DNA of 64,000 nucleotides, taken from assembly GCA_965199495.1 (NCBI GenBank), contig CBDASK010000003.1, positions 4,256,001 to 4,320,000 of the forward strand, given 5' to 3'. Source of the DNA: Abditibacterium sp. (GTDB lineage: Bacteria > Armatimonadota > Abditibacteriia > Abditibacteriales > Abditibacteriaceae). A program made the position numbers and the translations under genes. Positions 46,917-53,709 of the stretch are shown one piece after another (the stretch's first letter is position 1; each line of letters begins with the position of its first letter). The notes beneath the pieces are model-generated. The model worked only from the letters and a program-made list of their open reading frames with translations, had not been told where the DNA came from and did no database searches.

Positions 46917-47052
46917 GGCGCGCGAGTTTGCGAAGCGTTAATGCGCGCTCTGCCAGTGAGCTATGAGCCAATGAAAATTTCGGCCCGGCGGGAATCGAAC
47001 CCGCTACCACGTCCTCCACAGGAAATGTAGGCTTCGCACGTTGGGACGCGGC
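46917..47052 (-). ncRNA. YrlA-type Y RNA copy 7
   Basis: CCCAAC..AAGCCTACA motif, T arm GGTTCGATTCC, closed acceptor hairpin, D arm TAGCTCACTGGCAGAGC. Confidence 0.7.
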
Positions 47053-47078
47053 ATGTTGATAAAATTAAATTCTCAAAA

Positions 47079-47222
47079 ATTCACGGCGCGCGAGTTTCAA
47101 AAGCTATGATACGCGCTCTCCCAAACTGAGCTACAACCGATTTCTCGGTTGACAGGATTTGAACCTGCGACCTCGTCCGTAGCAAGGAATGTAGGCTTTT
47201 GCGGTTGGGGCGCGCCGTGAAT
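47079..47222 (-). ncRNA. YrlA-type Y RNA copy 6
   Basis: Terminal stem ATTCACGGCGCG/CGCGCCGTGAAT; GGTTCAAATCC; TAGCTCAGTTTGGGAGAGC. Confidence 0.78.
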
Positions 47223-47237
47223 ATGAAGTTAGTAACA

Positions 47238-47381
47238 GTTGTGCCGCGCGAGTCAGACAAGCATTTGGGAATCGTTATCTGGAGGGCGTTTTACCCCGAC
47301 TTCTCGCGAAGATGGCGGATTCTCACCGCCACAACCAGATGCGTGGGATTGTAGGCTTGCGCGGTTGGGACGCGGCACAAC
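47238..47381 (-). ncRNA. YrlA-type Y RNA copy 5 (divergent tRNA-like domain)
   Basis: Terminal stem GTTGTGCCGCG; AAGCCTACAATCC; T-loop variant GGTGAGAATCC. Confidence 0.7.
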
Positions 47382-47402
47382 AAGACAAATTGGAGCAAAA
47401 AA

Positions 47403-47550
47403 TCACGGCGCGCAAGTTTGAAAAGCTTTGATGCGCGCTCTATCCAAGCTGAGCTACGGGCCGGTAGAAAAAATCGGCCCGACAGGATTCGAACCTGTGA
47501 CCTCGTCCTCCGTAGGGAATGTAGGCTTTTGCCGTTGGGGCGCGCCGTGA
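47403..47550 (-). ncRNA. YrlA-type Y RNA copy 4
   Basis: ACAGG-TTCGAAT-CCTGT; CGGGCCG/CGGCCCG; TAGCTCAGCTTGGATAGAGC. Confidence 0.78.
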
Positions 47551-47579
47551 GTTATTCGGTTGTCAAAAGAAATTTATGC

Positions 47580-47722
47580 AGCCACGGCGCACGAGTCTGC
47601 AAAGCTGAAATACGCGTTCTACCTTTAAACTACGAGCCGATTTCTCGGTTCGGCGGGAATCGAACCCGCATCACGTCTGTGACAGGGAATGTAGGCTTTG
47701 TCGGTTAGGGCGCGCCGTGGCT
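47580..47722 (-). ncRNA. YrlA-type Y RNA copy 3
   Basis: Terminal stem AGCCACGGCG; GCGGG-TTCGATT-CCCGC; TAGTTTAAAGGTAGAAC. Confidence 0.78.
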
Positions 47723-47740
47723 ATGAAATTGGGAAAGGGT

Positions 47741-47882
47741 TTTGCCGCGCGAGTTGAATCAAGCGTTGAATTTTAATCAGGCGCTCTGGCGCTGAGCTAA
47801 TCTCTCGCGAGATGAAGCGAGTTGAACGCTCCGACCTCCTGATCCCGTAGATTGTAGGCTTGAAGAATTGGGGCGCGGCAAA
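47741..47882 (-). ncRNA. YrlA-type Y RNA copy 2
   Basis: Terminal stem TTTGCCGCGC; AAGCCTACAATC; GCG-TTCAACT-CGC; TAGCTCAGCGCCAGAGC. Confidence 0.72.
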
Positions 47883-47892
47883 GAAAAAGACG

Positions 47893-48037
47893 TGTCCTTC
47901 GCACAAGTTATGCAAGCGTTTGGTTAATCGCTCCCTGCTCTACCACTGAGCTACTTTCTTGCGAAAGATCGGAATTGAACCGATGACCTTGGAATTAAAA
48001 TGGATTGTAGGCTTGCACCGTTGGGGCGCGTCAGACA
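47893..48037 (-). ncRNA. YrlA-type Y RNA copy 1
   Basis: CCCCAAC..AAGCCTACAATCC; ATCGG-TTCAATT-CCGAT; TAGCTCAGTGGTAGAGC. Confidence 0.72.
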
Positions 48038-48059
48038 ATTAAATTCTACCTTAATTGAA

Positions 48060-48722
48060 TTACTGCGTCAAGGTCATTTCGTCGAAATTTTCCGCATTAA
48101 TTTTCAAATCGCCCAACGTGACCGACCAATCGCGCTTTTGCTGCGTCCATAACCAGCGCATTAATGATTCGCTGCCGATGGCGACGACGAGCAACAACAA
48201 ATTGCGAGCGAGCGGGTAATCGCAGGCGCCGACACCAGCCACGTCGGCGGGCACGAGATAATTTTCGTTCCATTTGACTTCGCCATAATCGGTGTTGACG
48301 CCCAAATGTAAGCATGCCACATCGTGTTCGCGGCAATAATTGGTCAACAATTCGCGTCCGGCGGAGTTATCGAGACAATCCACGATGACATCGGCGCCGC
48401 GCAAAAGTTTGGCGATAGATTTCTCGTCGAGCGTCTTGTTACAACATTCGATTTCGGCGCCAGTCGCGCGAAAGACGCGCGCGGCGACGGCTTCGGCTTT
48501 GGGCGCGCCGATTTCTGCGCGGTCGAAGACCTGCGTGCCGATGTTGTGTTCTTCAACTCGGTCGCAGTCAATGACGCGCAAATTGTCCGCGCCGTGACGC
48601 GCCAAGTTGTCGGCGAGTTGCGAACCCAGCGCGCCAACACCGCAAATAATGATGCGCGCCGCGCCCAAAGTTTCGATGGCGCCCGCGCCGCGATAAAGCG
48701 ATTCGTGAAGTGTGAAGGACAT
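48060..48722 (-). CDS. ThiF/MoeB/E1-family adenylyltransferase
   Basis: IICGVGALGS, VIDCDRVEEHNIGTQ, KAE, VDCLDN...R; start placed at MSFTLHE. Confidence 0.88.
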   Translation of the reverse strand: MSFTLHESLYRGAGAIETLGAARIIICGVGALGSQLADNLARHGADNLRVIDCDRVEEHNIGTQVFDRAEIGAPKAEAVAARVFRATGAEIECCNKTLDEKSIAKLLRGADVIVDCLDNSAGRELLTNYCREHDVACLHLGVNTDYGEVKWNENYLVPADVAGVGACDYPLARNLLLLVVAIGSESLMRWLWTQQKRDWSVTLGDLKINAENFDEMTLTQ

Positions 48723-48739
48723 AATAAATTCTCGTTTTT

Positions 48740-52325: not shown

Positions 52326-52612
52326 TTTGGGCCTCCTTGGTGTGGAGGACGAGGGCGCAGATGTTTTGGGGTGACGCAGATTTATCGCGTCTGAAATGTA
52401 AAATTTGCTTCAAATTTAGCGATTGCGCATGGATTGCTGGCCCGTCATAATTGCGTCGTGAGACGCGCACTTCAACGTAAAGGGCGCCTCCCACGACGCA
52501 ACTACGGCGGGCGCAACTGCGCAAATCCAAACATGAAACGGCTCTTACTTTTCAAACGCGATAAATCGACGTCCTTACGTCGGCAACTGCGCTAATTCAG
52601 GCCGCTGAGAAA

Positions 52613-52745
52613 ACGGCGTGACGGCAGAGCCGTGGAGAAACAGAGAAAACGAAGTGAGAGGCGAGATGACGGGTCTCCGACCCTGAAACTCGGCCTCCGG
52701 TAATTGTCCTCTCTAACTCTCCACGACTCTGCGGTCACCCGCCGT
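52613..52745 (-). ncRNA. Long-stem structured RNA upstream of Ro60 (candidate second Y RNA)
   Basis: 5' and 3' ends pair over ~35 bp with bulges; G-U pairs work only on the minus strand. Confidence 0.5.
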
Positions 52746-52922
52746 GGCTGCTGTTGTCACTGGCTTGTTGAGTAATTGTTTGCAACTTTGTAGAGACACC
52801 GACTTGTCGTGTCTAAAGCGTTGGATTTGCCTAAATCTTGAAGCAAGTTCGACTTTTTTAGACACGACAAGTCGGTGTCTCTACAATTACTCAACAAGCC
52901 AGTGACAACAGCAGCCACGGCG
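52740..52922. repeat. Nested inverted repeats (GTAG-type REP pair inside a second IR)
   Basis: Outer arms 52740-52778/52884-52922; inner GTAGAGACACCGACTTGTCGTGTCT arms 52788-52817/52857-52886. Confidence 0.85.
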
Positions 52923-52928
52923 AGTTAA

Positions 52929-53159
52929 TTAGCCGAAAACGGCTTGCGGGCGCACGGTGAAGTTGCCGTTTTCGTGGCGCTCGACGACGTGAAAGTTGAG
53001 TTGCGCGACCGGCACTTCCAGGAAGTGCGCGACGGCTTCTTTAATCGCGAAGTTATCGGCGTTGGCGGGCAAACGCAATTGGGCGATGCTCAGCCGGTGC
53101 GAGTGGCCGCCGTAACGAACGTGAACTGCGGGCGTGAGCGCCGAAAGTGTGTGTGTCAT
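52929..53159 (-). CDS. Ubiquitin-like (beta-grasp) small protein
   Basis: 76 aa; VHVRYGG..L beta-hairpin, IKEAVAHFL helix, ends in RPQAVFG; strong RBS; E1 gene in same operon. Confidence 0.65.
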   Translation of the reverse strand: MTHTLSALTPAVHVRYGGHSHRLSIAQLRLPANADNFAIKEAVAHFLEVPVAQLNFHVVERHENGNFTVRPQAVFG

Positions 53160-53188
53160 AATGGTTTTTCTCCTCCTTGTGAGGAGTA

Positions 53189-53274
53189 TGGGAGCCGAGG
53201 GAATCGAACCCTCTCAGCCGCAAAGGGCACGATTTTTACAGAATCGTTCAACTCTCCAACGTTGACGCGCTCCC
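53189..53274 (-). tRNA. Atypical tRNA-Tyr (GTA)
   Basis: ACGATT-CTGTAAA-AATCGT, long variable arm, GAGGG-TTCGATT-CCCTC, G7-G mismatch, 5-bp D stem. Confidence 0.7.
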
Positions 53275-53295
53275 AAAATGTGGGAATTGGAGAAA

Positions 53296-53380
53296 AGGAA
53301 GGCCCAGGAGTCGAACCCGCAGGCGATTAACCCGGCGCTGGTTTTCAAGACCAGATGGCGTCCACACGCCGCGACCTTCC
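53296..53380 (-). tRNA. Atypical tRNA-Ser (TGA)
   Basis: Acceptor GGAAGGT/GCCTTCC, CTGGT-CTTGAAA-ACCAG, long variable arm, GGTTCGACTCC, imperfect T stem. Confidence 0.7.
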
Positions 53381-53412
53381 GAGTGGAACTTTAAAATTGG
53401 GTTGGGAAAAAC

Positions 53413-53452
53413 AAAAAAGCCCGCCATCGAGACTTCCTCAATGGCGGGCTTT
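53413..53452 (-). terminator. Leader terminator (attenuator) upstream of the tRNA/Ubl/Ro60 operon
   Basis: Minus strand AAAGCCCGCCATTGAG-gaagt-CTCGATGGCGGGCTTTTTT. Confidence 0.75.
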
Positions 53453-53473
53453 GGGCGCGGACGGCGCAGTGAT

Positions 53474-53611
53474 TTAAAACTGCCGTCGCGACTGAACCGA
53501 TGAGGAGGAAACCAAATTTTGGTTGCGATAATCGCCGCGCTGTGATGTTCTTGGCGACAAACGGACGAATTCACAATGGGCGCTCGGTTTGGATTCGAGT
53601 TGATGTTTCAT
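53474..53611 (-). CDS. Putative leader peptide (45 aa)
   Basis: AGGAGG-13nt-ATG; MKHQLESKPSAHCEFVRLSPRTSQRGDYRNQNLVSSSSVQSRRQF; stops about 20 nt before the terminator. Confidence 0.5.
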   Translation of the reverse strand: MKHQLESKPSAHCEFVRLSPRTSQRGDYRNQNLVSSSSVQSRRQF

Positions 53612-53680
53612 GGAAATGGCTTGACCTCCTGTCGGAAAATTCATGGCTGTGATTGGTCGCCGATATGGCGACGGAGAAAC

Positions 53681-53709
53681 ACTTTACTGGGGTTTCAAAG
53701 CGTTGTCAA
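53681..53709 (-). promoter_or_regulatory. sigma70 promoter of the Ro60 operon
   Basis: TTGACA-17-TAAAGT. Confidence 0.7.

Follow-up and report, generated by a model that had tools for sequence, protein, structure and literature searches.

In bacteria, particles of Ro60 and Y RNA are known to assist in the decay and repair of RNA, and ubiquitin-like cascades to serve against phages. What does a Ro60-like gene do when it shares an operon with an array of tRNA-like RNAs, a small glycine-ended protein and an E1 enzyme? The question is raised by a locus of Abditibacterium sp. (GCA_965199495.1, contig CBDASK010000003.1, positions 4,256,001–4,320,000; this stretch of 64,000 nucleotides is hereafter the window, and coordinates refer to it unless a numbered locus such as L001 is named). 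The genome comprises 4.8 Mb, and the operon elements all lie on the minus strand of the window; the nearest related locus, in an Abditibacterium metagenome-assembled genome, shows 90% protein identity. A sequence-only reading had proposed here a Ro60 ribonucleoprotein particle (RNP) coupled to ubiquitin-like chemistry, and the promoter, terminator-like hairpin, tRNA-Ser, tRNA-Tyr, four core open reading frames (ORFs), orphan ORF and seven RNAs that it listed were all found where it had placed them (Table 1). We tentatively propose, with a probability of about 0.4, that the set carries out reversible ubiquitin-like tagging steered by RNA baits; that conjugation is coupled to the RNP in one form or another is probable.

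A Ro60-like protein and its RNA array

By its sequence profile, the large protein is best called a member of a divergent Ro60-like clade. A profile of 44 family members matched the TROVE-domain structures 9l5y/9kop over positions 24–394 (E 2.5e-5) and human Ro60 (9nen; E 5.7e-4), which backs the kinship claimed earlier; the matches to Xenopus Ro60 (0.029) and Deinococcus Rsr (0.46) were weak. Pfam TROVE matched none of the 44 members and nothing in the genome. The best Pfam domain match was vWA_Ro60 (E 4.8e-5, below the cut-off), to which 16 of the 44 members matched at E 0.1, and the vWA metal-site word DKS-G/S/A-S-M is kept in all 44. Relatives of the protein numbered 2738 among the 8000 scored. 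A stand-alone vWA gene adjoins the TROVE gene in 11 loci (L008, L025, L011, L020, L021, L024, L029, L034, L039 and others); its product in L034 has a C-terminal part resembling a helix-turn-helix, and in L008 and L025 it is flanked by two TROVE genes.

The seven RNAs of the window share 33 invariant alignment columns, and a covariance model built from them found exactly these seven in the whole genome. The earlier count of seven tRNA-mimic RNAs thus stands for 46914–48036, and it has to be extended by a degenerate eighth unit outside that range, which the covariance model of the seven did not match. For comparison we surveyed 42 bacterial TROVE loci from Abditibacteriota, Chloroflexota, Cyanobacteria, Acidobacteriota, Planctomycetota and others, several of them cut by contig ends. 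The model gave 140 matches, in the window and in 39 of the 42 loci, all on the strand of the TROVE gene, and so bore out the claim that Y-like RNAs lie beside the Ro60-like gene. Among the loci without a match (L016, L017 and L026), L016 and L026 have <350 nucleotides (nt) upstream. The RNAs usually lie upstream of the TROVE gene (31 loci) or else follow the E1 gene (6 loci), in arrays of up to nine units. Against the Rfam YrlA model (RF02553; gathering score 69), four window units scored 32–39 bits (best 38.5) and one 26.5.

The RNAs have a common handle, consisting of an outer stem, an internal loop, an AGC/GCT stem and then TACA, with GC-N-TACA present in 137 of 139 distinct units. Covariation supports both the handle and the overall structure: in an alignment fitted to the covariance model, from which these statistics come, 92.8% of cells were paired and 35 of 37 pairs had two-sided changes, as compared with 31–51% pairing in slid controls. 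The word GNCGAA occurred within the first 35 nt of 8 of the 139 units, in the variable part of the handle, and was not seen near the 5′ end of the seven window units.

The handle encloses a variable cargo. In the window units this has the order of T arm, closed acceptor stem and D arm, that is, a permuted tRNA. Sorted by pattern, the 139 units comprised 59 with T before D, 22 with D before T (including 3 mis-sorted permuted units), 24 with T only, 3 with D only, 30 others and 1 unparsed. A Y-U-N-N-N-R loop stood at the tRNA register in 33 of the 56 permuted units scored (3 more were too short), as against 0–11 at eight other registers, and the anticodon-like loops displayed 24 different triplets. 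In L006 and L035, the handles enclose pieces of 23S rRNA that are identical or near-identical to two 23S sites of the window genome, which we take to be the sarcin-ricin loop and the GTPase centre; Rfam scores the cargo as large-subunit rRNA positions ~1071–1167. A third rRNA word, in two other units, is presumably helix 44. Units with rRNA-site cargo lie at L006 10276–10483, L035 1357–1567, L012 7512–7670 and L013 233–388. A further cargo word, GCTGCAAGCCTGAAC, is common to handle RNAs of L008 (5032–5153), L015 (7757–7880), L019 (4232–4451) and L032 (3387–3504) and is absent from the window genome.

Candidate modifier, candidate carrier and E1

The 76-residue protein ends in RP-E/Q-A-x-Y/F-G, which is invariant in all 31 aligned members. 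In a wider set the Gly was present in 22 of 23 members, three of which have 1–4 residues beyond it, and the remaining one has Ala. Two phage members encoded beside JAB genes run 2–4 residues past the Gly, and nearly all members have a single terminal Gly rather than Gly-Gly. Relatives numbered 1529, with no Pfam domain in the 120 listed. We regard the protein as a candidate ubiquitin-like (beta-grasp) modifier, a label that rests on context: Pfam, PDB, the ESM Atlas and hhalign gave no link to the beta-grasp fold, and the Atlas matches were to unnamed clusters.

The 301-residue protein, hereafter the Cys protein, is likewise labelled from its context as a candidate E2-like carrier. Residues G266, C268 and L269 are invariant in 104 aligned sequences; Cys268 follows what appears, by eye from the alignment, to be a helix and strands. 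The domain forms 1175 clusters at 50% identity. It had no match in Pfam or PDB, no usable match in the ESM Atlas, and belongs to no known family. In all 26 bacterial loci that have the gene, it precedes the E1 gene on the same strand.

The E1 is a minimal enzyme with invariant adenylation-site residues (G28, G30, G33, D52, K75, D115 and D118). Residues C27, C137 and C167 are present in 23 of 23 members; CxxC occurs in only 1 of 23, so that there is no conserved zinc site. Cys167 is located before the last long helix, which we take to be the place of the catalytic cysteine in MoeB and UBA5. The protein fell below all NCBIfam equivalog cut-offs, with the best scores for ThiF, TcdA and MoeB, and its domain was the only part of the operon that PADLOC matched.

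The partners co-occur with the Ro60-like clade

The neighbourhood survey suggested with the earlier reading showed the small protein in 32 of the 42 bacterial loci, the Cys protein and E1 in 26 loci each, and the full trio in 24. Where the TROVE locus had no Cys gene, 5 of the 5 genomes tested have one elsewhere. In 301 genomes, an even sample of the cyanobacterial phylum that holds the Spirulina locus, 34 had the TROVE gene, 35 the Cys gene and 33 both, on different contigs or far apart in 12 of the 33; the small protein was found in 31 genomes, all among the 34 TROVE carriers. These counts support a tight co-occurrence of the small protein, Cys protein and E1 with this TROVE clade. The two refuting outcomes of the earlier reading that the analysis covered were not observed. 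Among 61 relatives of the window genome, the Cys protein accompanied 7 of 7 strong TROVE matches, and one further genome had a weak Cys match only. The patchy spread of the set within genera (4 of 12 other Abditibacterium-genus genomes) suggests that its genes are acquired and lost together. Even when the Cys and E1 genes are elsewhere, the gene for the small protein tends to be kept next to the RNAs and the TROVE gene.

Viruses carry the set as well. In 53 viral TROVE loci, we found the Cys gene in 19, E1 in 17 and, with the first profile, the small protein in 11. A JAB motif was present in 15 of the 19 viral loci with a Cys gene, the motif also occurs between the Cys and E1 genes in the bacterial locus L040, and Prok-JAB Pfam matches were obtained among neighbour ORFs. 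JAB and the small protein occur together in 11 loci, in 9 of which the small protein is already Gly-ended. Further neighbours were seen in L051 (9914–10447), L014 (6591–7133), L062, L064 and L100: one phage cassette encloses a gene for ribosome recycling factor, and the other four loci have HNH nuclease genes within or next to them.

A conserved leader and spare tRNAs

The protein operon opens with a leader that likely acts by attenuation, as the sequence-only reading had it. This is supported by a conserved leader ORF of 50–56 residues, with a stop 46–56 nt before the U-tract of the terminator, in all six Abditibacterium-like leaders examined, each of which also has the promoter and the terminator. 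The leader ORFs loosely share the motif G-G/D/S-Y-R/S, and the 5′ arm of the terminator is able to pair with upstream leader sequence before the hairpin is complete. The inducing signal would be disturbed translation. The pair of spare tRNAs for Ser and Tyr that follows is also present in 5 close loci, and tRNA genes or arrays are common neighbours of related loci. In the acidobacterial loci L011 (24–5503) and L014 (3133–6506), large tRNA arrays (31 and 25 calls out of totals of 33 and 27, respectively) immediately precede the small protein gene.

Proposed mechanism and its alternatives

The gene content and its co-occurrence, the conserved residues, and the structure and mimicry of the RNAs are shown above; from them we infer how binding, thioester relay, targets and induction might fit together. 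The RNAs would be transcribed as an array and then cut into units, each consisting of the constant handle and a variable display domain. The Ro60-like protein would bind the handle, as known Ro60/Y RNA pairs and the near-constant adjacency of the genes suggest. The display domains, which imitate parts of the translation machinery (permuted tRNAs here, acceptor-less tRNAs and 23S rRNA pieces in relatives), could bait proteins that act on tRNA or rRNA, such as anticodon nucleases. The E1 would adenylate the Gly of the small protein and pass it via Cys167 to Cys268 of the Cys protein; this relay is proposed because of E1 chemistry, the invariant residues and the gene order. The Cys protein would join the small protein to the protein held by the RNP, and the JAB peptidase, where present, would remove the tag. 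The leader-peptide attenuator may turn on the protein genes and spare tRNAs when translation is disturbed, and the array may be transcribed from a promoter of its own. Phages would use this kit to blunt host defences that target translation. It is possible, although we consider it doubtful, that the putative Ro60-like ring with its exchangeable RNAs acts as the E3 of an RNA-programmed ubiquitin-like ligase, in which the RNA mimic (anticodon loop, tRNA elbow or factor-binding site of 23S rRNA) would be the substrate receptor and a nuclease or factor gripping it would be covalently tagged.

A number of results weigh against bait-directed tagging. Compared with ThiS/MoaD by hhalign, in a test that had no positive control and in which 3 of 20 rows were not ThiS/MoaD, the small protein gave a probability <1%. 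Its best PDB match was to ribosomal protein L23 (E 4.6e-4) over 38 residues, a helix-strand that we treated as uninformative. The Cys domain reached a probability of 2% against bacterial E2s, near the reversed and unrelated controls and again with no positive control: its score of 17.9 compares with 6.5–17.4 in 40 shuffles, 17.1 for the reversed alignment and 20.2 for an unrelated TROVE alignment, the E2 set being 18 rows from 21 loci with 2 rows mis-picked from non-E2 ORFs. Against Prok-E2_B and the BilB-like protein of the genome, the probability was <1%, likewise with no positive control. Of the seven window RNAs, no more than four have a canonical loop, and in none of the seven does the best-matching genomic tRNA body share the anticodon of the loop. 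When a ribosome mask was placed at the leader stop in a folding test, a clear switch that freed the 5′ arm was seen in only 2 of the 6 leaders. The window operon has no JAB gene, and the neighbour scans revealed no recurrent target, nuclease or defence gene beside the operon. The co-occurrence counts include kin genomes, which are not independent, and the profiles used for counting were derived from the loci counted. Finally, no Cys gene lies in the flanks of 34 of the 53 viral TROVE loci, and a viral subclade of 32 loci (L065–L096, several of them near-duplicates) has none of the three kit genes in its flanks. The Ro60-like genes of this subclade are ~25–30% identical; 19 of its loci have full-length RNA matches, with one or two handle RNAs. 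An RNP can therefore be present where no tagging kit is near.

The same co-occurrence data would fit a scheme in which the acceptor of the small protein is the Ro60-like protein or a fixed partner of the RNP, for example an RNA-tethered decay or repair enzyme. Conjugation would then switch or turn over an RNA quality-control particle like Rsr/RYPER, and the RNAs would be tethers or gates rather than baits. We hold this to be unlikely. Y RNAs are known to tether Ro60 to PNPase (PMC4201824), the small protein gene tends to keep company with the RNAs and TROVE, and RtcB is encoded in the genome. The earlier reading saw no rtcB in the window, at which no direct search was aimed; the sole RtcB match of the genome lies ~2 Mb from the operon. 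There was none among the scanned neighbour ORFs of related loci (rtcA and rtcR were not searched for), and neither a blastn search of the genome with the leader nor a reading of the region upstream of rtcB revealed an operator common to both. Self-tagging would leave unexplained the 24 anticodon triplets at the exact tRNA register and the rRNA pieces, and the known YrlA of Salmonella has no anticodon loop (10.1101/312249). That the two halves are separate stress-regulon modules, a nuclease-sponging RNP and an unrelated tagging kit which travel together and work apart, we regard as very unlikely: the kit-less viral subclade and the unlinked halves in some cyanobacteria speak for it, and against it stand the mutual co-occurrence of 33/34 and 33/35, which holds even when the genes are unlinked, and the position of the small protein gene with the RNP half.

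The earlier reading had left the chemistry between tagging and sulfur relay. We favour the protein-tagging branch because viral JABs are common, small proteins are Gly-ended in 9 of 11 JAB loci and no sulfur family recurs. Under sulfur relay, or under modification of RNA, the small protein would be a ThiS/Urm1-like carrier, the Cys protein would hold a persulfide, and sulfur or another group would be placed on tRNAs or on the mimic RNAs. The best scores of the E1 (ThiF, TcdA and MoeB, although all below the family cut-offs) and the neighbouring tRNA genes or arrays agree with it, and JAB enzymes act in some sulfur pathways too. Yet the 166 neighbour ORFs scanned (of 188 candidates, the remaining 22 being duplicates, near-duplicates or scanned separately) contained no rhodanese or TtuA/ThiI-like protein and no recurrent desulfurase or other sulfur-relay family; sulfur-type genes among the neighbours were the singletons of a class-V aminotransferase (L057) and a MOSC fragment (L027). 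The small protein shows no ThiS similarity and ends in a single Gly in nearly all members, and the genome already encodes three ordinary ThiS-family genes. A sulfur relay is therefore quite unlikely. Least likely of all, in our judgement, is that the small protein acts otherwise than a ubiquitin-like protein, and after adenylation is joined to an RNA end or to an aminoacyl- or peptidyl-tRNA, or serves as an MccB-type peptide substrate. The failure to detect beta-grasp or E2 similarity would be accounted for, and the superfamily of the E1 includes MccB and TcdA, both matched by the window enzyme, which act on peptides and tRNA; however, the JAB peptidases, the two phage C-terminal extensions past the Gly and the two invariant cysteines agree with a cascade of protein thioesters.

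Comparison with known systems

The Rsr systems with YrlA/YrlB of Salmonella, Mycobacterium smegmatis and Deinococcus (RF02553; PMC4201824, 10.1101/312249) have in common with the present set a helical plus vWA protein, adjacent RNAs on the same strand with a closing stem, the permuted order of T arm, closed acceptor stem and D arm, and a YUAY-like word after the handle. The present set differs in that Pfam TROVE is unmatched, the GNCGAA motif is replaced and the scores lie far below the Rfam cut-off. Unlike YrlA, the RNA family keeps varied anticodon-like loops, forms arrays of up to nine units and has other cargo, including rRNA pieces; its partners are the small Gly protein, the Cys protein, E1 and JAB rather than the RtcB/RtcA of Rsr operons. 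The loop difference may be partly a matter of interpretation, because Chen et al. described, in many YrlAs, an unconserved ‘V’ stem-loop at about the place of the anticodon loop (PMC4201824). For YrlA RNAs, the effector that recognizes the tRNA-like domain was stated to be unknown (10.1101/312249).

With BilABCD of types I and II and the operon types 6a–6e (10.1101/2023.09.26.559546; PMC1779556), the set shares a near-terminal Gly, a Cys protein at the E2 position, an optional JAB and an E1. The gene order Cys protein–JAB–E1 of many phage copies parallels the order ubiquitin-like protein–E2–deubiquitinase–E1 of BilABCD (10.1101/2023.09.26.559546). In contrast to Bil, the Cys protein has no detected E2 similarity, the E1 is minimal and without a zinc site, a Ro60-like protein and RNAs are linked, and phages as well as hosts carry the genes. 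Neither vWA nor TROVE is mentioned in the main text of 10.1101/2023.09.26.559546 or PMC1779556. The trn operon of Anabaena with TrcR (PMC10272220) has spare tRNA genes or arrays in common with the set, as well as a probable connection to translation stress; control here looks like a leader attenuator, not a repressor, and that paper mentions neither TROVE nor ubiquitin. A Ro60 protein and ThiF/E1-like genes of Nidhogg viruses have been listed without being linked (10.1101/2021.07.29.454249), and ROT/TROVE genes of some jumbo phages have been noted as an RNA-repair platform (PMC7824862).

In its design, the set resembles an Rsr/YrlA particle to which a BilABCD-like cascade has been added, and by the membership tests applied it falls outside YrlA, Bil and Rtc. 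A literature search returned no description of this gene set, nor of any link between Ro60/Y RNA and ubiquitin-like cascades, although an earlier mention is possible. The set is widespread, across phyla and large phages, and yet unnamed; cultured carriers include Dictyobacter, Thermogemmatispora, Spirulina and Abditibacteriota IAD-21. The clade offers a set of four proteins and a few RNAs for asking what reads the tRNA-like domain of Y RNAs. If RNA baits do direct tagging, this would be a new class of RNA-guided protein modification and possibly a counter-defence of large phages; if the ligase reading is true, bacteria and large phages would have a broad, evolvable antidote to translation-targeting toxins. 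Even if the baits do not direct tagging, there is a new RNA family, a small-modifier family and a Cys-enzyme family.

Layout of the locus

Table 1. Elements of the operon and RNA array in the window
Element	Position	Strand	Basis or remark
Sigma70-like promoter of the protein operon	53681..53709	-	TTGACA-17-TAAAGT, 10/12; TTGACA at the same position in 5 close loci
Leader ORF, candidate attenuator peptide	53474..53644	-	56 aa; 45 aa from second ATG with Shine-Dalgarno-like site
Intrinsic terminator-like hairpin in leader	53416..53452	-	17-pair stem and T run; terminator in 6/6 leaders
tRNA-Ser(TGA), spare divergent copy, lineage-specific accessory	53296..53380	-	Different housekeeping copy elsewhere in genome
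tRNA-Tyr(GTA), spare divergent copy, lineage-specific accessory	53188..53275	-	tRNA call and comparison with close loci and genome
Gly-terminated protein, 76 aa, candidate ubiquitin-like modifier	52929..53159	-	Invariant C-terminus
Divergent Ro60-like protein, 526 aa: TROVE-like helical part and vWA with DxSxS metal site	50745..52325	-	Profile matches
Orphan ORF, 299 aa, passenger	49803..50702	-	ORF list
Cys protein, 301 aa, candidate E2-like thioester carrier	48858..49763	-	Invariant G-x-C-L word
Minimal ThiF/E1 adenylating enzyme	48060..48722	-	Pfam ThiF (PF00899) E 9.5e-29
Promoter-like site for RNA array	48043..48071	-	TTGACG-17-TAGAAT; similar -35/-10 pair before first RNA in 5/6 close loci
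Y-like RNA 1, permuted tRNA, loop triplet TTT, position 32 not canonical	47895..48036	-	
Y-like RNA 2, permuted tRNA, loop not canonical, CGG by manual reading	47741..47883	-	
Y-like RNA 3, permuted tRNA, canonical loop GTC	47583..47720	-	
Y-like RNA 4, permuted tRNA, canonical loop ACG	47404..47550	-	
Y-like RNA 5, divergent D and T arms, no canonical loop	47240..47380	-	
Y-like RNA 6, permuted tRNA, canonical loop GCT	47082..47220	-	
Y-like RNA 7, permuted tRNA, canonical loop GTG	46914..47056	-	
Degenerate eighth short unit, handle and small hairpin, outer stem decayed	~46808..46884	-	Aligns to intact last unit of L001 (12962–13040)

Two elements of the sequence-only reading drop out of the system. 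The orphan ORF had no relative in any of the 42 related loci and has a GC content of 47%, as against 56–60% for the core genes. The ‘long hairpin RNA’ has as its core a dispersed repeat, and 5 of the 6 closest loci do not have it, their spacer between the small protein and TROVE genes measuring only ~40–115 nt. The view of the locus as one unit is doubtful, and a single transcript is probably wrong, as a conserved promoter-like site precedes the array. The claim of an array promoter rests on this conservation, because the promoter scan of the window was at chance level overall (5 found versus 4.6 expected).

Dispersed palindromic repeats of two families are inserted in the operon spacers, at 52730–52925 (~88 places in the genome) and 48735–48860 (~41), these counts being taken in 300-nt bins. 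Two more long hairpins, at 52400–52540 and 52600–52740 in the spacer between the small protein and TROVE genes, are single-copy in the genome, and this spacer is absent from most close loci. We rejected the 70-residue ORF at 52318–52530 as a gene, as it has no Pfam match and overlaps a hairpin, and miRNA-family matches in Rfam, which are long palindromes.

Other observations

Elsewhere in the genome, at L127 821–2010 (G000:C3 ~514900–516100), a pair of genes for a BilB-like (E2) protein and Prok-JAB makes up a probable Bil-type system; its E2-like gene, used as the query, was found in 0 of 200 other genomes of the phylum. UBC-type E2 proteins occur in 15 of 151 genomes of the phylum of the window (L104–L124), several with two per locus and, in L108, with a JAB-like gene near. 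Within ~10 kb of the operon lie a KAP-family P-loop NTPase (37731–40424, plus strand) and a 964-residue protein that by eye resembles type IIG restriction-modification enzymes (58457–61351, minus strand). An ORF at 40447–41346 (minus strand) has the words S-x-x-K, SDN and KTG, which we take to be the marks of a class A beta-lactamase. At 28143–28216 (minus strand), ARAGORN calls a tRNA with the anticodon TTA, which would read the TAA stop codon and may be a pseudogene or a suppressor-like tRNA.

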